Below are positions 2,305-63,389 of a DNA stretch of 64,000 bases, piece by piece. The stretch comes from a virus. The notes beneath the pieces were generated by a model. It was not told the DNA's origin. It was given only the letters and a program-made list of their open reading frames with translations, and did no database searches. Position 1 is the stretch's first letter, and each line of letters starts with the position of its first letter. The DNA lies in the IMG/VR virus record IMGVR_UViG_3300006802_000087, positions 1 through 64,000 of that record; one strand, 5' to 3'. The translations under genes were made by a program, and so were the position numbers.

Positions 2305-3039
2305 ATGTCACAAAACTTAGAAAGCTATTTTAGTTCAATAAAAAACAATACACGGCTATTAACAAAAGAAGAAGAAATATCTTTGGCAAAAAGAATTGAA
2401 AAAGGAGATAAACGCGCAAGAGATATTATGATTGAATCAAACCTTAGACTAGCAATATCTATTGCAAAAAAATATGCAAAATACGGTGGTAGTTTAGAAG
2501 ACTTAATTCAGGAAAGTAATATTGGTTTAATAACTGCAGTTGATAAATTCGATTGGCGAAAAGGTAATAAATTTTCTACTTATGCAACATGGTGGATTCG
2601 ACAGGCAGTTACACGTAGCTTGACGTCTGAAAGCACACTTTTAAAAGTTCCTTCTCATACACTCGCAAATTCTAGAAAGATTTGGCAATTTAAACAAGAT
2701 TACAGTGAAGAATTCGGTCGAGAACCTTCTATTGATGAAATCTGTACAGCCTTTGATCTTTCAGAAAAACATGTTAAAAATGCCATGGCTTCCTCTAAAG
2801 CAAAATTTACCTCTTCTTTAGATATGCAAATTGGTGATGAAGGAAACAGGACTTTAGCTGACATCATTCCAGATAACAATCAATCCATAGAAGAAATTAT
2901 AGACAATAAAAAAATAAAAGAATGTATATTAAACGCCCTTAAATCTTTGACAAAAAGAGAAGAACTAGTCTTAAGGTTAAGATTTGGTCTTGATGACTTA
3001 ACTGATGATGATGATAATATTTGCACAATTAACAACTAA
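2305..3039 (+). CDS. Sigma70-family factor (regions 1.2, 2, 3, 4.1; lacks region 4.2 HTH)
   Basis: LLTKEEEISLAKRI, NLRLAISIAKKY, DLIQESNIGLITAVDKFD, FSTYATWWIRQA, LTKREELVLRLRFGL then stop. Confidence 0.93.
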   Translation: MSQNLESYFSSIKNNTRLLTKEEEISLAKRIEKGDKRARDIMIESNLRLAISIAKKYAKYGGSLEDLIQESNIGLITAVDKFDWRKGNKFSTYATWWIRQAVTRSLTSESTLLKVPSHTLANSRKIWQFKQDYSEEFGREPSIDEICTAFDLSEKHVKNAMASSKAKFTSSLDMQIGDEGNRTLADIIPDNNQSIEEIIDNKKIKECILNALKSLTKREELVLRLRFGLDDLTDDDDNICTINN

Positions 3040-14004: not shown

Positions 14005-14392
14005 GGGCCCGTAATGGCTTCGACGGAATAGAATCAAGGGGAGAATGCAAGCAGGGAAGATACGCCCTTAACAGTTCAAATTTTATAGTTGCAAATAATA
14101 ACGCACACTTCGATTCAGTAGCAGTAGCTGCTTAATTGACGCCGGTATCTCTTCCGGTGCAAAACAAGAGGTTAGTCAGATGGGTGAGACGAAAAATTAT
14201 AAGGGAGTCTAGCGGACTTTGCCGACACCTAAAATGGTTATCCACGTGGTATGTGGTGGAACTCAAGGTTACCTAGAGTTGGTGGAAAGAGGTGGCTATC
14301 CTTGTTATCAGGAGAAAAACGATAACTAAGCTTGTGAACGACTCAAACTAAGACTATTGCGGACGCGGGTTCGACTCCCGCCGGGTCCACCA
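14005..14392 (+). ncRNA. ssrA: tmRNA
   Basis: 5' GGGCCCG..TTCGAC; 3' T-arm GGTTCGACTCC and CGGGTCC-ACCA; G3:U70 pair; tag ORF 14091-14135 ANNNAHFDSVAVAA*. Confidence 0.96.
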
Positions 14393-30645: not shown

Positions 30646-32681
30646 TGAGAAAAGTGAAAATAACAGAATCAAAAATAAGAAAGTTAATCAGTAACTTGCT
30701 AAATGAGTCTATTAGCGATGATGAGATTAATCAACGTATAATTGGTATTAAGGCACAGGGGTTAGCTAAAAACCCAGCTTTTGAAGCACTTCATAATTTA
30801 ACAAAGGAACTGGTATCAGATCAACAGATGAAAAATTTGATTGATGCATCTGTCTCTGTTAAATCACATACTGGAGAAGTCCCAGTATGGAACAGTCATG
30901 GTTTTGATCATAGTGACTATTGGAAATTTGTTGTTAATGTTGACCCGGCAAACAGAAGCAGCTCGGGAGGTGGATTGGCTGGAAGCTATACATATCCTAA
31001 AATTACTGAAAATTTCCGCACAGACCAAAAGCCTTTAAATTATATCTTAGAAGATATGAGGAATAGTACTTTAACACCACCAACTAGCTATTCTGGCGCG
31101 TCTATAACAATAGCAGACCAGGATATACTAACTTTCTTAGAAGACACTTCATATGTAAAATCTGTTGCTGACGGACATGAAGCTTTTGCTGCACTATTAT
31201 TTGCAAAATACCTAGACAAGAATTTCACCGTTACTCCTTCCACACAAAAAGGAATGGATTGTATTTCTGATGACGGAACCATTTCTATCGAAGTAAAAGG
31301 TTCTCAGAAGCCAGAACCTCAAACAAATTTCTCTGGTTCACTTCCCAAGTATTCAACTAATCATTTCTATTTATTCTTAGCTACAGACAGAAGTTATATA
31401 GTTAGATCTGACCTGTTAAGAAGATTTTATATGCTCTCTCAATTTAATGAAGAAGATCAAGAAGAGTCTTTTTATAGAAGATTAGTAGGAGATGGATCTT
31501 TGGCAGCCCCAGACTCATTTCCTAGACTAGGTACACTAAGAGACTTTATGATAACTGCTTCCCCAAGTGATGAAGCTTTTGACGCCATTAAAACACAAAG
31601 CTATAGCGAATTTAATGAGGCAATCAACGATCCGAACACACCGCAAGAAATTAAAGTGTTATATTATAAAATGTTGTCAGAAGTAGAAAGTCAAACTGAA
31701 ACATTGGCAGCAACTTTAATCCAGTCATTGTTTGGGTTTGAGGGAACAGAAAGAATTAATCCTCCCGATCTTAGTTTTCTAGGATTGCAAGTCTATTTAA
31801 GACCAGTGTTGAAAGGCGTAAAAAGCCAGCAAGATCCTTCTATTCCTGCTTTGACAACGGGCCTAGGCGATGGTGAAGAAAGAAGTCAAGTCTATACGCA
31901 AGGAGGAACTCTTCACCCTAATTATGTGACTTATATAAGAAGTCAAGTCAATAGTTTAGTAGAGAGAATAAAAAGCAAGTACAACTATTCTAGTGTCAAC
32001 AGAAGCTTTAAGATAAAAATACTTGCATACATTGTTACGTCAGTAAGAGAAAAAATTAATCAACTTGCCCAACAAGTTTATGCTGATATAATAGCAACAT
32101 ATGATAGTAACAATGTAACTGCAGATGTACTTAGGTCACTAAAAGATGAAGCCTTAGAGAAAAATAGCGAATATAAAGATTCTGTAGCTGCACACAAAGC
32201 TGATAAAGCCGCAAGAGAAGCAGCAATAAATGCATTGGCAGCCAGCCTATCCAATTGGTCAACAATGACTAAAGTAGCAAAAAATAAAGCAATCAAAGAT
32301 GCAGATATTAAGAAAAGTTATCCTATTCGTAAAAAGAAAAAACGTCCAACTAGCGGATATCGTTTAATTTTAATGTTACGAGATGCCGAAAAGACAGGGA
32401 CACCAATTTCAGGAACAGAATTTGGTGAAGCATTTGTAGAATCAATTACTGCTGAAATTGAACGACTCAAGGAAGAATTAACTGCTAGCATAGCTGAAGA
32501 AGCTAGTAATCTAGAGTCGACACCGATGTCGACTAGACTTTTTGAAGAAAAGGACACAAACTTATATCAATCCATACTTTCAGACCTGCAAGAAGCCTCT
32601 CGTCAGCAGCGCAGAAAACAACTCTCTAACTTAGACGAACAAAAACTGCGCGAACTCATAAGACAGACAATGCGAAAATAA
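30645..32681 (+). CDS. Large doubly tagged protein with possible PD-(D/E)xK nuclease domain
   Basis: KITESKIRKLISNLLNE; GMDCISDDGTISIEVKGS; ends LDEQKLRELIRQTMRK. Confidence 0.65.
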   Translation: MRKVKITESKIRKLISNLLNESISDDEINQRIIGIKAQGLAKNPAFEALHNLTKELVSDQQMKNLIDASVSVKSHTGEVPVWNSHGFDHSDYWKFVVNVDPANRSSSGGGLAGSYTYPKITENFRTDQKPLNYILEDMRNSTLTPPTSYSGASITIADQDILTFLEDTSYVKSVADGHEAFAALLFAKYLDKNFTVTPSTQKGMDCISDDGTISIEVKGSQKPEPQTNFSGSLPKYSTNHFYLFLATDRSYIVRSDLLRRFYMLSQFNEEDQEESFYRRLVGDGSLAAPDSFPRLGTLRDFMITASPSDEAFDAIKTQSYSEFNEAINDPNTPQEIKVLYYKMLSEVESQTETLAATLIQSLFGFEGTERINPPDLSFLGLQVYLRPVLKGVKSQQDPSIPALTTGLGDGEERSQVYTQGGTLHPNYVTYIRSQVNSLVERIKSKYNYSSVNRSFKIKILAYIVTSVREKINQLAQQVYADIIATYDSNNVTADVLRSLKDEALEKNSEYKDSVAAHKADKAAREAAINALAASLSNWSTMTKVAKNKAIKDADIKKSYPIRKKKKRPTSGYRLILMLRDAEKTGTPISGTEFGEAFVESITAEIERLKEELTASIAEEASNLESTPMSTRLFEEKDTNLYQSILSDLQEASRQQRRKQLSNLDEQKLRELIRQTMRK

Positions 32682-45309: not shown

Positions 45310-45393
45310 GCCTTGATGGTGAAATTGGTAGACACGCAAGACTTAAAATCTTGTTTCCGCTAGGAAGTACCGGTTCGATTCCGGTTCAAGGCA
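45310..45393 (+). tRNA. tRNA-Leu(UAA), CCA not encoded
   Basis: GCCTTGA/TCAAGGC acceptor, CAAGA-CTTAAAA-TCTTG, long variable arm, GGTTCGATTCC. Confidence 0.93.
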
Positions 45394-45397
45394 TTAT

Positions 45398-45474
45398 GCA
45401 CCCGTAGCTCAGCTGGATAGAGCATCCGCCTTCTAAGCGGACGGTCACAGGTTCGAATCCTGTCGGGTGTACCA
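45398..45474 (+). tRNA. tRNA-Arg(UCU)
   Basis: TCCGC-CTTCTAA-GCGGA; ends ACCA. Confidence 0.96.
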
Positions 45475-45666
45475 CTTTGATATAACCGGGAATACGCTCC
45501 TCGTCCCCAGTTTTTATTTATGAGATGTTAGGACTATCTCGGTTATATCTTTTTTTAAAGAATGCAAGGGGGCTTCCTGAGGCGGGTCAGTCTTAAACGA
45601 TGGTAATCCCAGGTGTACCGATAATCGCGAAGATATGTCGGAGATATCACGCCCTTGCTTCTATGA

Positions 45667-45743
45667 TGCGGGATGGAGCAGTTGGTTAGCTTGTCGGGCT
45701 CATAACCCGAAGGTCGGGGGTTCGAATCCCTCTCCCGCACCCA
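45667..45743 (+). tRNA. Initiator-type tRNA-Met(CAU)
   Basis: TCGGG-CTCATAA-CCCGA with three consecutive G:C pairs; ends CCA. Confidence 0.93.
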
Positions 45744-45774
45744 TTTTAAACAAACGAGTAACAAGAGAAAACAA

Positions 45775-46056
45775 ATGAGAATTTTAATATTACTATCTTA
45801 TATAGGCTGTACACAGCACGTTCATACAAAAGACATTAACAAAGTCAATGTGGGAATGTCATATGATACCACAACACGAATCTTAGGGGAGCCTAATAAA
45901 GTGGTAAATAATTCTATAAGGGTATATCAAGGTACAGAAACTGCATACAATCATGAAGTTTTATTGTACAGATCACACTCAAATGCATCTGAGTCTCTTA
46001 GAGATTGTTATCTGATATTTACAGATAAAGTTTTAAGAGAAGTGAATTGTTTTTAA
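45775..46056 (+). CDS. Small lipoprotein, SmpA/OmlA(BamE)-like
   Basis: LLSYIGC; KVNVGMSYDTTTRILGEP. Confidence 0.65.
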   Translation: MRILILLSYIGCTQHVHTKDINKVNVGMSYDTTTRILGEPNKVVNNSIRVYQGTETAYNHEVLLYRSHSNASESLRDCYLIFTDKVLREVNCF

Positions 46057-46064
46057 TGTTATTT

Positions 46065-46137
46065 GGGCACTTGGCGCAGCGGTTAGCGCAGGGAACTCAT
46101 AATTCTTTGGTCGTAGGTTCAAATCCTACAGTGCCCA
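46065..46137 (+). tRNA. tRNA with CAU anticodon, probably Ile2 (lysidine, reads AUA)
   Basis: GGGCACT/AGTGCCC acceptor; CTCATAAT..TTGGTCG body resembles ileX. Confidence 0.85.
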
Positions 46138-46245
46138 CTTTACTATCAATGCTCTGGGTTAGGTTAAAACTGCCGGTCGGATTAGGGCATTGATATAAAA
46201 CTCCTTGGTTAATCCGACCGGCACCCTTTTTAATTGGAGATAAAA

Positions 46246-51854: not shown

Positions 51855-53224
51855 CACAAGACGTCTCGCGCCCTACGTCATCTCGCGCCCGGGAACTTTA
51901 TTAACGGAGAAAAAATGGAAACAACAATAGCACATATCGTAATCGAGCGACTAAATCACAGTTTGAAAAAGAAAATCATATTCCCTGACAATATAAAGGG
52001 AGACTTAATGAAGGAACATGCATGGGCAATGTTTTCCCAAACCGGCCCAAAGTTAATCGTCAATCATAAAGAGCTTTTTGAAAACGTGTGCAAAGAAGTC
52101 GATCATGCAATTGCTGAAGGTGTCGTTGTTTGGGATGGTTCCGGAAAGATAACAATCTTGAACGGGAGTTTATAATGACAAATGTTCTACCAATAATCAA
52201 GTTCACCACAAAGGTGGCTCAAAAGAATGTGGCAGTAAATGTGTATCATATCTCTTATATTAGCGGTCCGCACAAATCCAGTAAATACCCGAATCATAAA
52301 TCTTATTATGAACTAGTTATGTCTAATGGAAACTTATTCCGGATTGGCGAAGAAGATGCCGTTCGAATCGAAGCAGCTATTACAAAAGTGCAACAGCCCA
52401 TATAGTATTGTATAATATAAAGGCGAGGAGGAAATGAAATATGAAAATAATAACGGCAAACAAAAATCATAAAATAGGAAGTATTATCCGATATGGAGGT
52501 CGTGTTTTTCAGATACTAACGATAAACAATCGGATTATGATTGCTCATTCGTATGATGAACATCATGGGATTGATGATACAATCTTTGTAACACAATCAA
52601 CAGGAAAAGTCTTTGCAACCAAATCCGTAAGACGAAAAGTGTAACCGTACTTTACATACTGTATAATATAAAAGAACCAACTAACCAAGGAAATACAATG
52701 AAATACATTGAATATAAAACAGAAAGCTTAAAGCTCAATAATGAATCATCACCCGGTGGCCTTAATGTTGAATTGAGAGTTACTGATGAAGGTCAGGTCA
52801 TTATTCAAATCGGTCATACGTGCACACTTAGACTTGATAACGATGATGCAGATCAATTAGCCATGGCAATCAAAACAGCCCAATCAATTGCTGAGCAATT
52901 GTCGAATGGTACGAACCCAAAAGAACTGATCAATACAAGTGTATCGATTCGATACAATTGCATCGATGGATCGATACAAACACTCAATAAAATGTAACCA
53001 GTACAACCATTATATATAATATAACCACAACAACAACCAATGGAGGATCTAATGGATCACTACAAATTCTTTCTTCAATCACTTAGTTGGGATGAATTCC
53101 AAACATATAAATCAAATGTAAATGAAGACAACCTTACACCTGAGCAACAACAAACTCTAAAAGAAGAGTCAGCACGTCGGTCAGAATCATTCAATAAATA
53201 CATGTCATTCTAAGGAGATAACAT

Positions 53225-53479
53225 ATGAATCTTTATGTAATCAGGCAAAGCGTTAATAACGATTGGGACACTTATGATAGTGCAGTCGTTATTGCAAAAT
53301 CAGAAGAAGAAGCAAGAACAGTTCATCCAGACGGTAATCGATGGATCGATGGCAAATGGGAAGGTTATTCCAGTGCTAGCACTTGGTGCAATCCGGAAGT
53401 TGTCGAAGTCGAGCTTATCGGGACGACAACTTCCGGTGCTAGCGGAACTGTAATAATATCATCATTCAATGCAGGATAG
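53225..53479 (+). CDS. Conserved small phage protein
   Basis: YDSAVVIAKSEEEAR...SFNAG. Confidence 0.65.
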   Translation: MNLYVIRQSVNNDWDTYDSAVVIAKSEEEARTVHPDGNRWIDGKWEGYSSASTWCNPEVVEVELIGTTTSGASGTVIISSFNAG

Positions 53480-54263
53480 GAGGACAAATAATCATGAAAC
53501 TCTCTAAAGAACTCCAACATTGGGTCGACATTGACGATGCTTGTGACATTGAGTCGATCAGGGGAAGATCGGTAATCGTATCATATCACGATACATCAAA
53601 CCCAGAACTGGAACTGCCGTTTATAATCGATCGAATTAAATCCCTTTATGCTGCAGGTGGAGCTGTTGAGGCAATCCACATTATTCCTGAAACCGGTTTA
53701 AAACTTAATCGATCTAGTACAAACCATGACGACTGTCAAGGTATACCAGACGATAAGCTGGTCATAAAATGTAACACAACAAACAACACATTATAATATA
53801 ACTACACAACAACCAAGAGGTAAAACATGTACAAACTAGAACAAATAATTGAAAACGCAGTTCAACAATATATTGAGGAAAGCGACGTCGTTGAAATCGG
53901 TGCAACCGGTCTAGAAGAACTCGGCCTTGACTTTCGATGTGGCCGCATTCTTATATCAGTCGATGAAGGCTTTGTTGCAGCCTGTAGTCCTAGATCGATT
54001 GAGTACTACGGTGGGTGGGAATATATCGACTCAGAATACAAGCTCGATGCTGGTGACTACCGTTTTTACGACAAAGAGGCCAGTCGAGTCGAGTCAGTCA
54101 TTCAGTATTATCTCGAGCTCTTGGAAGAAGGGTATCAATACGAAGACGGAAAGGGCTTCGTTAACTCTGATGGACTAACTCCACGAGAAGTTTTAGCTGC
54201 CAAAAGTGCAACAGCTGAAGAAAAATAATATACTAAAACCACATAACAACCAATGGAGGTATT

Positions 54264-54767
54264 ATGGGCGGCAAAGCTCTTAATGGAAAACAAATCACAA
54301 ACGAAGAAGCACACCAACTTTTTGAACGACTAGTCTTAGATAACAACTTAGGATGCAAAGTTGAAAAGATCCTGCTTTGTGGATCAGCTCGTCGTGGAAA
54401 GGGCAAGTGCGGAGATCTAGACATTGTGTTTATCGATGGAGGCGAAGAAGAAAATCTCTTGAAGAAGTGGCTAGTCGACAACTATGGTGTCAAAAAGAAC
54501 GGAAAGCCACAGACAACAATCCTATATGAAGGTGTCCAAGTAGAGTTCTATGAGGCAACACAGGAGTCATGGGGATCCAATGTTTTAATGTGGACAGGAT
54601 CAGCATTCAATAATGTCCGCCTCAGAAGAAAGGCAAAGAAACGAGGCCTCAAGTTAAGTCAACATGGACTGTTCAATGAGCAAGGTGACAATGTGGCTGC
54701 TGGGATGACAGAGAATGACATCTATGAATACTTAGGCTATGAATATGTTGAACCACAAAAACGATAA
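54264..54767 (+). CDS. Minimal DNA polymerase X-family nucleotidyltransferase
   Basis: GSARRG..CGDLDIV, WTGS..NVRLRRKAKKRGLKLSQHGLF, EPQKR. Confidence 0.88.
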   Translation: MGGKALNGKQITNEEAHQLFERLVLDNNLGCKVEKILLCGSARRGKGKCGDLDIVFIDGGEEENLLKKWLVDNYGVKKNGKPQTTILYEGVQVEFYEATQESWGSNVLMWTGSAFNNVRLRRKAKKRGLKLSQHGLFNEQGDNVAAGMTENDIYEYLGYEYVEPQKR

Positions 54768-54774
54768 TAAATAA

Positions 54775-54869
54775 ACTCCGTGGTTGGTAGTTGATCCCAG
54801 TATTCGATCGATGAGATTATCGGCTGGGATTGGTGTCATAGGTGGTACCTATGGCGGACAGGGTGGGTA
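54775..54869 (+). ncRNA. Structured intergenic element, copy 1
   Basis: ACTCCGTGGTTGG, two hairpins, GGACAGGGTGGGTA. Confidence 0.6.
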
Positions 54870-55280
54870 TATATCAATCACAAGCAATCAAAGGAAATAA
54901 AATGGAATTAATACACTCAATCATTGTATTGTCAATGTTTATGACAGCAGTTCTTGGCCCTATCTTTTTTGCGCTAAGAGACTTTAAAGAGGCAGACACG
55001 GAAACCAAGAAGACAAGAACACACTTCATGAAGGGATAAGTATGAAAACATCATTAACACAATTGCAAATAAGCTTGGATGGCATCAACTGGACTGTAGC
55101 TGGAGAAGCGAAGTCTAATGTAAGTCGAGAAATGCTCGAGCTTAAAAGGTTGGAATGGGATCTAAGGAACAAACATCGAAAGACACCGGGTTTTAAGTTG
55201 CAATATGCCGAAGTAAAACAAACAAAAATGTAACTCTATTGCACACCATGTATAATATAACCACAACCAATGGAGGCAAA

Positions 55281-55472
55281 ATGGAAACACAACAAAAGAC
55301 AAAGGTTTCAATCGCATTGATCTTGGACTTATTGGCGATCACATTAATAATACTTCGACTTACTGGAGTTATTCAGATTGATTGGGTTTGGGTTCTATCA
55401 CCATGGTGGATACCTTTAACTTTGGCAGCAGGAATAACAGTAGCATCAATTGCAGACGAATGGATAAAATAA
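55281..55472 (+). CDS. Small 2-TM membrane protein
   Basis: LRLTGVIQIDWVWVLSPWWIP. Confidence 0.7.
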   Translation: METQQKTKVSIALILDLLAITLIILRLTGVIQIDWVWVLSPWWIPLTLAAGITVASIADEWIK

Positions 55473-55821
55473 TGAAACTGAAAATCAATTCAAAACATAT
55501 TGAGTGGGTAGACCATGTATTCGCTTCTAGCTCAAGTCATAACATCTCAGCGTGTTATGCAGATGTAGGGAAAGCAAGGATCAAGAAGAAACTGATAGAG
55601 GCTGTCAGTGCAGGGGATCTACCGCGAGAAGTTGAAGTCACCGGTGAGGTAAATCTTTCTTTTAAGATTGCCAGCTATCAAAATGATGGCTTCTGGTTTC
55701 GATCAACTTCTACACACAAAGACAAGATCTGGAAACTTTGGATCGAAGCTGAAGAGGCAATATGCGGACCAAAGCCATCACTACCTGAAATCATAAAACA
55801 AAAACACAAAAAGGGAAAGAA

Positions 55822-56781
55822 ATGAACTCAGAAATGATTCTCCTTGCAGGGAATGCCGTCCCTGTCTTGGCCGATTCAATCGCTAAACAATTAGGTCTTA
55901 GACTCTCTGAGGCAAATGTATCTCGTTTTTCTGACGGAGAGATATCTGTCGAAATCGATTCAAATGTGAGAGGAAGGGACGTCTTTATTGTTCAGTCAAC
56001 ATCTCAGCCAGCCAATGATCACTTGATGGAGTTGCTCATTATGGTCGATGCGTGTAAAAGAGCCAGCGCTGGTCGAATCACAGCTGTGATACCATATTAT
56101 GGCTATTCCCGACAAGATCGCAAAGTCAGGTCTCGTGCTCCAATCACGGCAAAACTAATAGCAGATATGATAACTGTAGCCGGTGTATCTCGCGTTCTCA
56201 CAATGGACTTGCACGCTGGGCAGATCCAGGGCTTTTTTAATATGCCTGTCGATAATCTGTTTGCTTCAGGCATCTTGTCTGAAAGAATGCAACAAATCTT
56301 AAACGCCGACTGTGTTGATAACACTGACTGTGTTGTCGTTTCTCCTGACGCAGGTGGTGCTGAGCGCGCGAGATACTTTGCAAAAAGGCTCGGAGCAGAC
56401 ATGGCAATCGTTGATAAACGAAGAAGTGAACCTAATCAATCAGAAGTCATGAACATTGTGGGTGATGTGAATGGAAAGACAGCAATTATTGTTGATGACT
56501 TGGCTGACACAGCGGGAACTCTCTGCAAGGCAGCTACAGCTCTCAAAGAACAGGGAGCAATAGAAGTTTATGCTTGTTGCACACATCCCGTTTTATCCGG
56601 TCCCGCATTCGAAAGAATAGCGCAGTCAGATATCAAAAAAATCTTAGTAACAGACACAATCGATCGATTAAAAAGTCAGAATAAATCAGATAAAATTGAA
56701 ACAGTATCAACAGCTTCTTTATTCGCAGACGCGATTGAAGCCATTCACAAGAACTCGTCTATCTCTCGCTTATTCGGATGA
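55822..56781 (+). CDS. prs: Ribose-phosphate pyrophosphokinase
   Basis: FSDGE, PYYGYSRQDR, DLHAGQIQGFF, VSPDAGG, IVDDLADTAGT. Confidence 0.97.
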   Translation: MNSEMILLAGNAVPVLADSIAKQLGLRLSEANVSRFSDGEISVEIDSNVRGRDVFIVQSTSQPANDHLMELLIMVDACKRASAGRITAVIPYYGYSRQDRKVRSRAPITAKLIADMITVAGVSRVLTMDLHAGQIQGFFNMPVDNLFASGILSERMQQILNADCVDNTDCVVVSPDAGGAERARYFAKRLGADMAIVDKRRSEPNQSEVMNIVGDVNGKTAIIVDDLADTAGTLCKAATALKEQGAIEVYACCTHPVLSGPAFERIAQSDIKKILVTDTIDRLKSQNKSDKIETVSTASLFADAIEAIHKNSSISRLFG

Positions 56782-57167
56782 TAGACAAACAAAAGGGGAG
56801 ACAATGAAAACAATCTTAACAGTAAAAGAAGCAGTATATGGATTCGAATCTTATTATGTTGTAAAATACACAGACGGTTCTTCGAAGATAATACATTATC
56901 TTACCAAAGAGCTTGAAAAACATCTCGAGGAGTAAATAAATGTTGTCAATAAAAACTTTAAAATATGTTAAGGAAATAATCAATCTTCACGACGACGTTG
57001 GAGTTTGGGCAATAACATCTAAAATGGTCTTTGACTATATTAAGAATAAAGATAAAAGTATAACAGAAGAAGAAGTAAAACAATGTTTTGATGTATTATC
57101 AAAAAATAATAAAATTGTGTTTGATGAGACTCGATCTTTTGTTCGACCTGTTAACTTAAAAGAATAA

Positions 57168-57280
57168 ACTCCGTGGTTGGTGTTTAAGTCTGCACAGCAA
57201 TGATAAGGCTGACTCTGAAACATGAGACATAAGAAGGGCAGACGGAGAGAGAGCTGGTTACTCTCGGGACAGGGTGGGTA
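57168..57280 (+). ncRNA. Structured intergenic element, copy 2
   Basis: ACTCCGTGGTTGG, GTCTGC/GCAGAC stem, GAGAG/CTCTC hairpin, GGACAGGGTGGGTA. Confidence 0.6.
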
Positions 57281-57612
57281 TATAACACCAACACACAAAA
57301 ATGTAACAGTACAAAACCAATAATATAATATAACCATAACCAATCAAGGAGATAACTTATGAAAACACCATCAACAACCAAAACCCTAATCTTTGGGATT
57401 GCAATCGGTATCTACACTGACTGGGGATTATTGCTAACAGACCTTATCAAAGGTTTTACTTTTACAACTGACTTAGTTGCTGAACAGTTTAATCTAGACA
57501 AAGAAAAACAGACAGTTCCAGAATATAAAGAAGAAAGTACATCACAAAATGTAACAGTACAAAACCAATAGTATAATATAACCACAACCAATCAACCAAA
57601 CATGGAGGCAAT

Positions 57613-57921
57613 ATGCCAAAACAAAACACACTCCCTAAATACTCAAATGATCCGAACTTTGTGGGATACCCATTCTTTTATGTTGTCGAAGACTATAAAT
57701 GTGAATGTCATGAATGTGCTACTGAATCCCGCGATGAAGGTAAGACAGTGACACCACATGTCAACTATGATGACCCACAACTCTATTGTTTCACATGCTC
57801 AGAACAAATTGAAGCTTCAAATGGTGCTCATGAAACTGATGAAGATGAAGACGACGGGAATGATGATGACTTCGTTCTTGAAGGTCGACGACTTCTCCGC
57901 GACCGATGCTTTTACATCTAA
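57613..57921 (+). CDS. Acidic Zn-finger-like protein
   Basis: CECHEC...CFTC; D/E-rich. Confidence 0.6.
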   Translation: MPKQNTLPKYSNDPNFVGYPFFYVVEDYKCECHECATESRDEGKTVTPHVNYDDPQLYCFTCSEQIEASNGAHETDEDEDDGNDDDFVLEGRRLLRDRCFYI

Positions 57922-59204
57922 AATGTAACACTGACACACATAGTGTATAATATAAAAGAACCAATCAACCAAGGAAATAATATGACAAAAAAACTTAAAA
58001 CACCTGATGTATACTATCGAGTTCGATTAGCATGCCCAGGTCGAAACCTGGCAATAGAATATATCGATGGTACTGATGAAGCTGCCGGCAGGTATTATGA
58101 GACATGGCGACTTATCGACTTGGATACAGGTGAAGTATTCGCAAAGGATGTCGTTCCACACGAAGTATTGTCCGTTGCATCTGAAATGACTAGTCAAAGC
58201 TCATATGAGAATATCACAGGAGAGTTTGAATATATTCGCGAAGCCAGACAATACCGTTTATTCAAAGATCTACCTCTCAAAGAGCGAATGAAGTATATCC
58301 TGTCACATGCTCAAGACTTAGAGAAAGACTTCAACAATGACGGTATTGATGCTGATCCGATCGAAGTAGCAACACAAGAAATGAACGATATGTATAATGA
58401 AACCCCGTGCTTCTATCATGACTCTGAAAAGAATGAATGGGTCTTAGATACAGACATGTACTAGAGGTGATGAATGAATACAAAAAACTATACATTGCGA
58501 TGGCTCTTTCATGGTAAAGAACCACAGTCCCATGAAATGGCGAATGCCACACTCCAGTCAGTACAAACTTATATCAACATCCTCAAAGGCTGGGGTTGCA
58601 TGCACTTCAAGTTAGTTGATGACACCGGGCATGAATATGAGATCTCGAGAATGGGCACAATAAAGGCATTACAAAATGTGTAACACTGACACACATAGTG
58701 TATAATATAAAAGAACCAACCAAGGAGACACAATGCCAAACATTCAAGAAACACCTAGGACATTCAAGGATGTCAAAGTAGGCGAAAACTTTTTGATGAG
58801 TGACGGTAAGTATACAAAACAGAGCTCGAGAACAGCAACAAGCTGGCGATCGGGTGGAACGATATATATCACTTCAAGTCAAAAGATTCGACAAGTAAAA
58901 CATTCATGGGGATGGGGAGTTTAATATGAAAATAACAGTAGACAAAACATACAAAGTTGGTGACACAGTACGGTATGAGACTTTCACTGGAGAATTGAGG
59001 ACTGTCAAAGTTACTGAAAAGGATGATGAGATCAAGAACAGCCGAGCAGGTTTTAGTGGCACTGATGTGCACACCCTTCAATCGGTCTGGGGACTAAACG
59101 ATCAAATACTCAGAGTATATTGTCAAGAACAAAAACGCTGGAAAATGTAACATTGTCACACACTGTGTATACTATATCCATAACCAACCAACCAAGGAAA
59201 CACA

Positions 59205-59938
59205 ATGAGATACTTCTCACTTGATTACCGTTCACCTCCATCTGGAATGGGTCAAATTATCGACAGTACACAATACAAGAGGGTCGGAGACAAATGGAAC
59301 ATGATCTTGGTAGACTATGGAGATAATCCGCATGAAGATCCAACCTATACTCAGACCAAGTACTTTCACTCTGAGCAAGCAGCACAAGAAGGGTGGCCAG
59401 GCCCAATCATACCAGAGATCATCCAGTATCTCCGTGATCAAGGGGTCACTCATGTACATGACGCGGAGCTCTCATATGACTTTTTTGCAACAGGTGAGTT
59501 CGGTTACTTCCCGATCGACCAATGGGCCGAGATCATGATGAACATGTTCAAATAAACAAGCAAAATCGCTTAATCACAGGAGTCTACATGTCAAATCTAG
59601 ATAAACTTACTTACTTCTCAATCGATTATCGATCACCACCCAGCGGATTAGGTCAGATTGTTTTCCCGGGTGGGAGTGATAAACCTGCTGATCTCGTTCT
59701 TGTCACTTATAAAGGCAATGGTGATGTTGCAAATCCGTTTTACAAAGCCACCCAGCACTTTCCTGAAGATCTGTTCGAAGAGGGCGGCAGAGAGTGGCTA
59801 GCTGAAAAGCTTCTTGGCTATGGTGTCACTCATGTTTATGATCCAGAACTGGGAGACCAGTGGGGAATGTCTCAGCATCTTGGCGAGCATTACTATCCCA
59901 TTGCGATCTGGTTTAACCGAACCTTTGGTGCATTATAA
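59205..59938 (+). CDS. Tandem paralog pair (59205..59555, 59588..59938)
   Basis: YFS(L/I)DYRSPPSG(M/L)GQI, GVTHV.D.EL, Y(F/Y)PI in both. Confidence 0.8.
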
Positions 59939-60382
59939 AATGTAACACCACAAAACCGGTAGTATAATATAACCATAACCCACGGAGGCACCATGAAAAC
60001 TTACATATTCCCCACACTCAATACTCAGGCAATCACAAGAAATGTTAATGAGATCCTCTCTGATGCTGAGTCATCTGTTCGAACTCGAACTTTTGGCGAC
60101 TTACTCGTGGCGGCACAGATTGCCAAGAAAGAAGCAGACAAGTGGTTGTCACCCGAGTCATTGATCGCTAATGAGGGACTTGCTTCTCACTTCATATCTA
60201 GAGATTGGGCAAATCTGCAACAGATCTCAGATGTTTTACACCACTTCTTGCTGACAGGTGAAGTTTCTATCAAGGCAATGGATCAAGAAGACATTGATAA
60301 AGAACTGAAACGCTTACACTAAAATGTAACACCACAAAACTAACAGTATAATATAAAAGAACCAACAACCACCGGAGGCAAT

Positions 60383-60943
60383 ATGCCAGAGCTTCACACA
60401 ATCAAAACATTCACATTCTCAGAACTTCCAGAAGACATTCGACAAGAAGTCATTGAAGCCTACGAGGTGCCTGATAACTGGGACGAATGGGTTATCGATG
60501 CAATCAACGAAGAAGCTGCTGAGCTCGGTATCGAAAACTTCGACTTCCAATACTCAGGCTTTTGGTCTCAAGGCGACGGAGCTTCTTTCACCGGCACATT
60601 ATCAACAGAACTCCTGACTTCGCTTTTGAAAGAGGAAGTCAATGAAGAACTCAGTTTCAATATAACTACATGCACGGCTCAAATCGACCGCAAGTCATAC
60701 CCACATTATGTACATGAAAACATGGTCTATGCTAGTTTCGACAGTGGAGATGAGCCTGTCACAGACGAAGACCGTGATGCTATTCTCACAGCATTGGAAG
60801 CATGGAAGAATGCATTATGCTCCAAATGGTATCGGCAACTTCGAGAATCATATGACGCAGAATATGAAGAAGAGAGAATCGCTGAAGAGTTTGAAGGCAC
60901 TCGTTTTCTGAGAAATGGTAAGGTATTCGACTTTAACTTTTAG
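60383..60943 (+). CDS. Conserved acidic phage protein (SGFWSQGDGASF family)
   Basis: FTFSEL, YSGFWSQGDGASF. Confidence 0.75.
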   Translation: MPELHTIKTFTFSELPEDIRQEVIEAYEVPDNWDEWVIDAINEEAAELGIENFDFQYSGFWSQGDGASFTGTLSTELLTSLLKEEVNEELSFNITTCTAQIDRKSYPHYVHENMVYASFDSGDEPVTDEDRDAILTALEAWKNALCSKWYRQLRESYDAEYEEERIAEEFEGTRFLRNGKVFDFNF

Positions 60944-60947
60944 TTAG

Positions 60948-61042
60948 ACTCCGTGGTTGGAGTGGTGGCAGTATTCGCTCATTGATCAGCGGCTGCAACC
61001 ACGGTGACACAGGTGGTAACTGTGGCAGGAAAGAGGTGGGTA
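60948..61042 (+). ncRNA. Structured intergenic element, copy 3
   Basis: ACTCCGTGGTTGG, GTGGTGGCAGT/GCTGCAACCAC stem, CACAG/CTGTG hairpin, GGAAAGAGGTGGGTA. Confidence 0.6.
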
Positions 61043-61959
61043 ACCAACCAAGGCTAACAAAAAATGTAACACCACACAACTGGTGGTATAATATAAAAGT
61101 AACCAACCAACAAGGAGTTCAACATGAAAGTTAAGTTTCATATCAGAGTTTACACAAACCCAGGTGGTCCCCGTGCGCATTGGAAAGATCAGGAGTTTGA
61201 AGATGTGGATCACATCGGAACAGTGGTCGGAAAACGAAGAGTTCGAGAAGACTATTGGACTCGGTTCGACTATGAAGTTGAGTATCAAACTGAGGACGGT
61301 AAAACTTTATACCGATGGGTACCCGACTACAATGTTGTAAAGATCGACGAAGCAAATGTGTAACCACACAAAACAGTTAGTATAATATAACCACAACCAA
61401 CCAAACAGGAGTTCATATGAACATATACAGCAACATTCTCAACCGTTACTTCGATTACAAAGGCCAAGCTTGGCAAGTTATCGGACATTGTGAAGACAGA
61501 TACGGGCAGACTTTTCGAAAGGTGATCAACATGAAAACAGCAGAGGAAATATACCTAGGCTACGAAGAGTTTTGGAAGGTGACACCCCGAGGCTACTCAC
61601 ACAACGGAAATGTAACAGCATAAAACCAATAGTATAATATAACCACAAAAACTAACCAAGGAAATAATATGATTATCACACTATTAGCACACCATATCGA
61701 ATGGGACACCGACGGAAACAATGATGTTGCGCGATCACTGCCGTCTAAGGTAGCAGTTGAAGTCGACTTAGTCGAAGATTCCGAAGCAGGATCGATTAAT
61801 GACCAGATCTGCAACCAGTTATCAGACTTAGTCGGCTTCTGTGTTTTGGACTACAAACTGGAAGGATACTCAGCTGAGGCTGATTATGCTCTTCAAATGA
61901 CCGGCACAAAATCGGAAGCATAATAAAACCATAACCAATCAACCAATACAGGAGGCAAT

Positions 61960-62208
61960 ATGCCAAAATACCAAGGACACAAAAACTGGAACCACTGGAA
62001 CATCGAACTCTGGATCAGCAATGAATATGATGTTTACAAACGAGTTCAATACCTTCTCGGCCGCAAACATATCTCAAAGAACGAGATCGCATCAGTCTTG
62101 TTAGGAGAGCTCCGCAATCGCTGGGGTGAGACAACACCAGACGGAGCACCTCTCACATACACAGGGATCCGAGCACACTTGACCGGTGTCGACCGCGACG
62201 ACTACTAA
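61960..62208 (+). CDS. Conserved small phage protein
   Basis: YQGHKNWNHWNIELWISNE...TPDGA. Confidence 0.65.
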   Translation: MPKYQGHKNWNHWNIELWISNEYDVYKRVQYLLGRKHISKNEIASVLLGELRNRWGETTPDGAPLTYTGIRAHLTGVDRDDY

Positions 62209-62730
62209 TACAAAAAGTGTAACACCACAAAACCAATAGTATAATATAAAAGAACCAACAACAACCAACACCCAAAAGGAGTCATTATGACTACAACAAT
62301 CAGTATCAAAACAGGAAACTACGTGAAGTCTATTCAGTCAAGAGAGGCAGTCTATCGAATCAAAGCCGTAACAGCTGACACTGTCACCCTCAAGAGAGTT
62401 AACGGTCGCCTTAACGGTGAGTATGAAGTTCCTCGATCGACCTTCTCTAAATACTTCCACGCAGCAGCATAAGAGTTCACATGAGTCAGGAAAGAGCAAT
62501 CATCATTGAGGTCGAGTCCCTCCTCCACGAGGGACAATCACCGGCTGTCATAAAGAGAGCAATAGAAAAGAAATACATCAAGAGCTTCTCCCAAAAAGAC
62601 TGGGAGCGCATCATGATCCAGGCACAGCTAAGAAGAGCATTCACACGGCCAGTACCATAATGCAAAAGAACACCAAAGTGTAACAGAACAGAGCCAAGTA
62701 TATAATATATCTACAACCAAAGGAGACCGC

Positions 62731-62940
62731 ATGTTTATCAAACTCACAAAGGTAACACAAACAACAACAGGATACGGTGTGTCTCTCAAAGTAGACAGCA
62801 TCCAAACAGATATCTGGATCAACACCTCCCATATCATTACAATGTATATATCAGGCCTGACATATGTCAACACCACTCATGAGACGATCAAAGTGTTAGA
62901 GACACCTGAGCAGATCATTGCTCTCATGAGCGCCGAGTAG
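62731..62940 (+). CDS. FlbD-like small protein
   Basis: MFIKLT...IWINTSHI...VLETPEQII. Confidence 0.6.
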   Translation: MFIKLTKVTQTTTGYGVSLKVDSIQTDIWINTSHIITMYISGLTYVNTTHETIKVLETPEQIIALMSAE

Positions 62941-63180
62941 GAGAGAGGTAACCATGACAGGAAGAGTCATCTACAGATTCGCAAGAGAGATCCTCCGAGA
63001 GCCACTCATCCTCGCTCGGGTATCACTGCGCCAGGAGTATCACTATACTCGACAACTTTTAAGGCAGCGACTGCGCCGCTGTGGCCGTATGGCCACAGTC
63101 AGGGAGGTGCTGAGTCGGCATGTGGAGAATGCAGAGACTCGGGACAAGGGCATATTCTTTTAACTCCTCTGTGCGGGGTG

Positions 63181-63199
63181 GGAAATGATAATCATTATC
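63181..63199. promoter_or_regulatory. Fur-box-like site
   Basis: GGAAATGATAATCATTATC, 17/19 match to GATAATGATAATCATTATC. Confidence 0.55.
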
Positions 63200-63389
63200 A
63201 ATTGGGTTCGGACTAAGTGCGCGAGATGAAAGTGAGTTATTCGATCGACTTGACTTAAACATACGAACGACCGACAGCACTTTTATGAACTCTCCCCGGG
63301 GCGGGTTGCCGCAAATCCTCACAAAAATGTAACGGCTCTTCACACCCTGTATAATATAATCACAACCCATCCAACCAAGGACAACAACC

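Follow-up and report, generated by a model that had tools for sequence, protein, structure and literature searches.

An apparently undescribed folded RNA family at early-gene ends of marine T4-type giant phages carries a strand complementary to early ribosome-binding leaders

The DNA analysed here (the window) comprises the first 64 kb of the 75.8-kb IMG/VR virus record IMGVR_UViG_3300006802_000087, which has a G+C content of 38% and is estimated to be 37% complete. We found that a repeated element at gene ends in its early-gene array apparently represents an undescribed folded RNA family of marine T4-type giant phages, a conclusion that is well supported. The 5' strand of the element is a genuine anti-leader, complementary to the ribosome-binding leaders of early genes, and is normally masked in cis. 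A previous sequence-only reading had described a structured non-coding element with three copies on the + strand, each right after a stop codon and each with a 5' motif antisense to early leaders, a covarying hairpin with a UGGU-containing loop and a G-rich 3' motif; it recognized no known RNA family. All of this was borne out. The opening 13-mer, ACTCCGTGGTTGG, is exact in all three copies and occurs exactly three times in the window (versus 0.46 expected, ≤2 mismatches), 7, 0 and 4 nt after a stop codon, and copies 1 and 3 share CAGTATTCG..CGGCTG, as had been noted. The earlier description also required correction. The copies start where they had been placed but end at ~54881, ~57296 and ~61053 rather than at 54869, 57280 and 61042, that is, ~12–16 nt further on, since the element continues past the G-rich motif with the 3' strand of a closing helix. 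The family is also far larger than three copies: an 18-mer scan of metagenome contigs from marine samples, together with four IMG/VR relatives (G001–G004), yielded at least 126 distinct copies. A fourth 13-mer copy of the record itself, at 69017, is truncated: it retains one hairpin and lacks the G-rich motif.

The full form of the element, class A, accounts for at least ~100 copies and has the order motif, 1–4 nt, variable stem P2, YGGNG, hairpin P3, GGGAHAGGGYGGGY, 2–8 nt and the 3' strand of helix P1 (CAYCAAC...). In class B a standard GC hairpin comes after the motif, in some copies together with a U-run, and a P1 partner is missing; the single copy at L346 is a bare P1 hairpin. The G-rich 3' motif was found 119 times as a real occurrence in the 600 kb of fetched DNA, every time with an exact 13-mer upstream. 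The A/T-rich run that holds the stop codons is likewise a conserved part of the module.

Helix P1 becomes apparent when the fold is extended by 15–20 nt. The GUGGUUGGUG part of the 13-mer then pairs with a C/A-rich, leader-like strand located right after the G-rich motif, 80–170 nt 3' of the 13-mer, and the resulting helix of ~10 bp, G.U pairs included, closes a three-way junction. P1 starts 5–6 nt into the motif, averages 10.0 contiguous base pairs versus 6.3 in shuffled tails (99 copies), is present in the minimum-energy fold of 91 of the 96 distinct members and adds about –11 kcal/mol; among 89 distinct tails, GUGGUUGGUG is paired in 84–100%. Read on the + strand, 101 of the 987 P1 pairs (~10%) are G.U, which, together with the co-orientation of the elements and the genes, places the structure on the + strand. 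P3 consists of a 5-bp core and a 7-nt loop with the consensus YUGGUUA (CUGGUUA in 70 of 91 copies). Covariation is seen in four of its five core pairs, with 19 distinct stems and 82% of cells paired versus 35–54% when the strands are slid. P2 is hypervariable (77 distinct sequences, from 7-bp hairpins to 97-nt branched inserts), and its closing helix of at least 6 bp lies flush with the junction in almost all copies. RNAalifold applied to a MAFFT alignment missed P1 and P2 because of misalignment; pairs were counted on the structure defined here and on parsed segments. Four or five complex P2 inserts of 60–97 nt recur with conserved inner sequences of their own (GCGCAAGGACG..GTCGACGAGGCAGC), e.g. 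at L249:190–260, L264 and L250, and may be separate structured modules.

The motif strand can also form a local hairpin, P0 (AAAC-U-CCG, loop UGGU, UGG-U-GUUU; –5 to –6 kcal/mol). The base two positions before the motif (–2) covaries with the base after GGTGTT (+18), with A-U in 48 cases, U-A in 33 and other combinations in 15, and the internal U.U is replaced by U-A in copy 3 and in copy-1-type variants. P0 and P1 are mutually exclusive, and P1 is far more stable. Participation in both helices puts the motif strand under two structural constraints, which helps to explain its invariance. The parts of the three window copies and the promoters adjoining them are as follows:

54765..54881, + strand: copy 1, whole module (stop codons, 13-mer, P2, P3, G-rich junction and P1 3' strand)
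54775..54787, + strand: copy 1, invariant 13-mer (anti-leader, P1 5' strand), with P0 as alternative local hairpin
54795..54829, + strand: copy 1, P2, variable stem with closing helix UCCCAG/CUGGGA
54835..54855, + strand: copy 1, P3 hairpin, 7-bp stem including a U.G pair, loop GUGGUAC
54856..54869, + strand: copy 1, G-rich junction J3/1 (GGACAGGGTGGGTA)
54872..54881, + strand: copy 1, P1 3' strand, C/A-rich and leader-like; P1 has 10 bp with two G.U pairs in the minimum-energy fold
57165..57296, + strand: copy 2, whole module, from the TAA of the open reading frame (ORF) at 56940–57167 through the P1 3' strand
57168..57180, + strand: copy 2, invariant 13-mer
57188..57243, + strand: copy 2, P2, a complex insert of "type 0", the commonest type in the metagenomes
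57249..57265, + strand: copy 2, P3, GAGAG / loop CUGGUUA / CUCUC, identical to the family consensus
57266..57280, + strand: copy 2, G-rich junction J3/1
57284..57296, + strand: copy 2, P1 3' strand (AACACCAACACAC)
57302..57329, + strand: early promoter (TGTAAC-N16-TATAAT) adjoining copy 2, followed by a C/A-rich leader and an ATG at 57359
60941..61053, + strand: copy 3, whole module, from the TAG of the ORF at 60383–60943 through the P1 3' strand
60948..60960, + strand: copy 3, invariant 13-mer; the AGU that follows allows ACUCC/GGAGU pairing (P0 with U-A for U.U)
60968..60996, + strand: copy 3, P2, GCAG..CUGC
60997..61005, + strand: second perfect partner of the 13-mer, internal and present in copy 3 only (CAACCACGG); a rival of the family-type P1 that gives an alternative fold
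61008..61024, + strand: copy 3, P3, CACAG / GUGGUAA / CUGUG
61025..61042, + strand: copy 3, G-rich junction, variant GCAGGAAAGAGGTGGGTA
61044..61053, + strand: copy 3, P1 3' strand (CCAACCAAGG); by inspection, nine of ten positions pair with CCGUGGUUGG
61065..61092, + strand: early promoter adjoining copy 3

The elements follow rules in their position relative to genes. A co-oriented ORF of at least 40 codons stops 0–11 nt before the motif in 111 of the 118 distinct contexts, where often two or three of the reading frames carry stop codons, and a few copies lie 3' of a tRNA gene (L123). In the window, the TAA at 54765–67 before copy 1 ends an ORF for a Pol X-like fragment, the TAA at 57165–67 before copy 2 ends a 75-aa ORF (56940–57167) behind a phosphoribosyl pyrophosphate (PRPP) synthetase gene, and the TAG at 60941–43 before copy 3 ends a 186-aa ORF (60383–60943). 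What follows the element is more varied. A promoter comes first in 54 of 94 downstream contexts, its –35 box 13–24 nt after the G-rich motif, i.e. directly after P1, while in 31 of the 94 a Shine-Dalgarno sequence (SD) and a start codon come next without a promoter, the P1 3' strand lying 5–25 nt before the next ribosome-binding site (RBS). Copies 2, 3 and 4 of the record have an early promoter within ~10 nt on the 3' side; copy 1 has none, and a small membrane-protein ORF comes directly after it, with its RBS and its ATG at 54903. Since the next gene in these 31 contexts can be reached only by read-through, the full form is probably not an efficient terminator. Class A copies, including all three in the window, also have no U-run after P3 or P1 and so do not have the form of intrinsic terminators, whereas some class B relatives do carry a U-run. 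In the G001/G002 lineage (L123:1620–1800, L280, L258, L347), several ATCTCGCG-type box repeats follow the element in place of the TGTAAC promoter; these boxes are possibly another promoter or operator class.

The flanking genes are diverse, with at least 25 protein families upstream and 52 downstream, which excludes a gene-specific riboswitch or regulator. P2 types (31 in number) combine freely with upstream gene families: type 0 follows five families, and upstream family 0 precedes 12 types. A conserved motif that served as crossover point would lead to such free combination. Conservation of the core extends beyond close relatives. The commonest upstream protein has distant homologues at 39–48% identity and is only 43% identical in G004, yet G004 has one class A copy with identical motif, P3 and junction. 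A P3-like hairpin with GGGATAGGGTGGGTA also occurs in a 5' untranslated region (UTR) at L385:1490–1550 (G004 31888–31940), with neither 13-mer nor P1; a promoter-like site lies just upstream of it and an SD 5 nt downstream. The G-rich module is thus able to stand alone.

Searches for known relatives were negative throughout. No Rfam 15 family matched the elements, whether the gathering threshold or E ≤ 10 was applied, nor did ARAGORN find a tRNA-like gene there; the P3 loop, with its U at position 2, resembles an anticodon loop, but a T arm is absent, and neither program indicates a cloverleaf of the tRNA or transfer-messenger RNA (tmRNA) kind. Megablast and blastn against a cultured-phage collection gave no match. 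The 18-mer scan of 185,579 prokaryote species genomes returned six chance matches in unrelated metagenome-assembled genomes, none with the element, and a literature search with both strands of the motif found one chance match, in an insect paper. A pattern scan of viral contigs for the 3' motif recovered only two IMG/VR copies that were already known, and two 14-mer scans of viral contigs returned mostly noise. Weak R1 model matches (window 47170, G002 and G003) lie inside coding sequence and were rejected as chance.

All four copies of the record lie within a 16.5-kb array (52.6–69.1 kb) that contains ~30 early promoters of nearly identical sequence (TGTAAC-N16-TATAAT); downstream of each come a C/A-rich leader, GGAG and a small ORF. 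The 13-mer is the exact mirror of this shared leader, i.e. of the C/A tract plus GGAG. We compared the 17-nt motif with all 26 early leaders of the record and obtained a mean duplex energy of –16.9 kcal/mol, versus –9.4 ± 1.7 kcal/mol for 300 shuffles of the motif, none of which was as low, and –8.4 kcal/mol for random windows. In every case, CUCC of the motif falls on the SD of the leader. The cis partner in P1 is equally strong (–17.6 kcal/mol). Neither the P3 loop nor the G-rich junction is more complementary to the leaders than are shuffles, which speaks against an anti-leader with several contact sites, and leaders that adjoin an element show no special match once the P1 strand is discounted.

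The closest known counterparts are PeSL (promoter-early stem-loop) cassettes of T4-type phages, in which plain stem-loops of the Gn-loop-Cn or similar type serve as terminators (Arbiol et al. 2010, PMC2839356; Comeau et al. 2014, PMC4122927). Like these, the elements are intergenic, lie in ORFan-rich arrays of small early ORFs in a T4-type phage (with ~30 promoters here), are repeated many times per genome and may be tied to modular ORFan shuffling. The PeSL order of stop codon, structure, A-rich stretch, sigma70-like early promoter and SD is found at copies 2, 3 and 4 and in 54 of 94 contexts but not at copy 1 or in 31 of 94, so that one third of the copies are promoter-less and must be read through. 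The structure studied here, moreover, is no simple hairpin but a three-way junction; its 5' strand of 13–18 nt is invariant and mirrors the leader, its loop and G-rich junction are conserved, and a U-tract is absent.

We tentatively favour, at somewhat less than an even chance, a model in which the element is a plus-strand, cis-acting RNA module at gene ends or between cistrons, with a self-masked anti-leader and kinship to PeSL cassettes. The module would be co-transcribed and mark where early gene units of marine T4-type giant phages end, as the structured counterpart of the PeSL stem-loop. Its closed junction may serve as a boundary at the RNA level that protects the 3' end or is a site of processing, and that acts as an attenuator instead of terminating efficiently; the anti-leader and pseudo-leader strands would neutralize each other in it. 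As P1 begins 5–6 nt into the motif and the stop codon lies 0–11 nt upstream, P1 could be opened by a ribosome that terminates there, or by cleavage; the anti-leader, once released, would then pair with real leaders (at about –17 kcal/mol) and cover their SD. A putative factor probably binds to the P3 loop and the G-rich junction, and the 13–18-mer may double as the crossover point for cassette shuffling. A parallel is provided by the RNase III sites of T7 early genes (Dunn and Studier), single irregular hairpins of about two helical turns that leave a protective 3' hairpin on the upstream message. Those too are multi-copy, partly sequence-conserved irregular structures between early cistrons just past stops. 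However, P1 has only ~10 bp, and a coaxial P1-P2 stack is assumed.

Several observations weigh against this model. A simple stabilizer or attenuator would need neither the invariant 13-mer nor the conserved loop and G-rich junction. Opening by ribosomes fails for ~30% of the copies, where the stop codon used lies 6–11 nt upstream, and for those after a tRNA gene (L123). The downstream SD is free of pairing with the motif in 21 of the 31 promoter-less folds, and translational coupling of the classic kind, through SD sequestration, can be rejected as a general mechanism. Finally, invariance of the 13-mer in the metagenomes is partly a product of the 18-mer query; unbiased evidence comes only from second copies on the same contigs, the window copies and G004.

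The complementarity itself could be what selection acts on. The 13-mer would then pair with shared SD leaders, either as a stable trans-acting fragment derived from 3' UTRs or through 5'–3' fold-back within one mRNA, to shut down or time early translation, with P1 as a regulated self-mask. We consider this possible but doubtful. All 26 leaders match in the SD register far beyond what composition gives, and a strand that has to match ~30 targets cannot drift, which would account for a 5' strand that is invariant while the P1 3' strand varies. Class B, with its motif, GC hairpin and U-run and no P1 partner, has the architecture of a 3'-UTR anti-SD or small RNA (sRNA) module, and the four copies of the record all sit among genes that use this leader. 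On the other hand, the putative seed of class A is cis-paired in nearly all minimum-energy folds, to a partner as strong as the leaders, neighbouring leaders are not singled out, and the other conserved parts do not contribute. The sequence-only reading had proposed trans sRNAs that shut off early mRNAs or hok-like fold-back silencers; target-RBS complementarity stands, whereas most predicted folds do not show the free seed typical of a trans sRNA, and trans shut-off or hok-like 5'–3' fold-back would require P1 to open. In hok mRNA, which folds back, and reportedly in icaR mRNA of Staphylococcus aureus, where a 3'-UTR anti-SD pairs with the leader, a short motif just past the stop is likewise complementary to the SD region of the 5' leader. 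There, however, one mRNA has one partner, whereas the motif studied here has ~30 matching leaders, and a cis pseudo-leader within a larger conserved fold usually masks it. A bistable riboregulator would reconcile masking and pairing by storing the anti-leader until terminating ribosomes or processing release it to pair with the leader of ~30 early mRNAs, while the P3 loop and the G-rich junction dock a putative factor; we judge this rather unlikely. The third suggestion of the sequence-only reading, a minus-strand RNA with decoy RBSs, builds on the resemblance of the reverse complement of the 13-mer to a leader with GGAG and is very improbable. In a minus-strand RNA the G.U pairs of P1 and several in P3 would turn into A.C, the elements run in the direction of the flanking genes, none of the three window copies has a minus-strand start codon at SD spacing, and no phage-type minus-strand promoter was found nearby.

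Alternatively, the junction could be the active part, with P1 just a closing stem, in a protein- or ligand-binding or catalytic domain such as a sponge for a host or phage RNA-binding protein, an RNase III or P site, a self-cleaving ribozyme or a G-quadruplex fold. Conservation in junction strands and one loop, next to covarying stems, is typical of aptamers and ribozymes; at least four G-runs are kept in all variants, and the P3 and G-rich module occurs once without the 13-mer, in the 5' UTR of G004. We nevertheless regard such a domain as unlikely, given that the variety of flanking families leaves no room for a gene-specific riboswitch and that no Rfam ribozyme or riboswitch matched at E ≤ 10. 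Two specific candidates were rejected: a double pseudoknot like that of hepatitis delta virus (CUCCG with CGGAG) shows uncompensated A/U/C variation and places the hypervariable hairpin (77 sequences) at the P3/L3 position, and a CsrA-type GGA sponge would lack its first GGA in ~35% of copies. It is quite unlikely that the element is mainly a DNA-level, PeSL-type recombination cassette, with the 13–18-mer and the promoter as crossover points, a fold that is a generic stem-loop attenuator, and identity maintained by gene conversion. The combinatorial association of P2 types with upstream families, the PeSL-like layout and the stops in several frames before the motif all fit such a cassette, but 18 bp of identity is short for homologous exchange, and gene conversion leaves unexplained why P3 stems covary around a fixed loop, why the G-rich junction is fixed, why P1 tolerates G.U and why the core is identical across phages at 43% protein identity. 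Integron attC sites, with core sites RYYYAAC/GTTRRRY, are likewise structured repeats that directly adjoin the 3' ends of cassette ORFs, pair at their own ends and vary in the middle. The elements differ from them in that an integrase context and conserved RYYYAAC/GTTRRRY sites are absent, every cassette is served by a promoter of its own, and conservation is far stronger at the 5' than at the 3' end.

The array promoters (AAAATGTAACA-N16-TATAATATAA) run from 52640 to 63355 of the window and on to 69104 of the record, each serving one small ORF, and ~26 of the 30 are without a three-way-junction element. Intrinsic terminators are not above chance in the 50–64 kb part of the window. The phage encodes a sigma factor (2305–3039, phrog_351), and hence the array promoters may not be host-sigma promoters. 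Its closest relative, G003 (202 kb, helicase 79% identical), has a Gp23-type capsid gene (216 bits), which assigns the phage to a marine T4-type lineage; among cultured phages there is no close relative, the best helicase identity being 37%. The Pol X-like (DNA polymerase beta-like) ORF before copy 1 (54264–54767, 167 aa) contains only the thumb and part of the palm, while the PRPP synthetase gene within the array (55822–56781) is complete. Elsewhere in the window we found a coding sequence for a GroEL-like chaperonin fragment (364–1374, phrog_5725) and, at 14005–14392 and 45310–46138, a phage-encoded tmRNA (tag ANNNAHFDSVAVAA) and four tRNAs (Leu-TAA, Arg-TCT and two Met-CAT).

Overall, abundant uncultured marine giant phages carry a large RNA family, with more than 100 distinct copies, that is undescribed in the literature searched. 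Terminator/promoter cassettes of T4-type phages can thus carry an elaborate RNA fold, one strand of which is exactly complementary to the ribosome-binding leader that characterizes the early genes. Should this match be put to use, the early messages would themselves carry an element for a simple form of global translational control, and a bistable riboregulator, if real, would give these phages a built-in, RNA-only timer or feedback on early-gene translation. Should the match go unused, the element would still serve as a clean marker when early gene units are annotated or cassette shuffling is traced in marine phage metagenomes.

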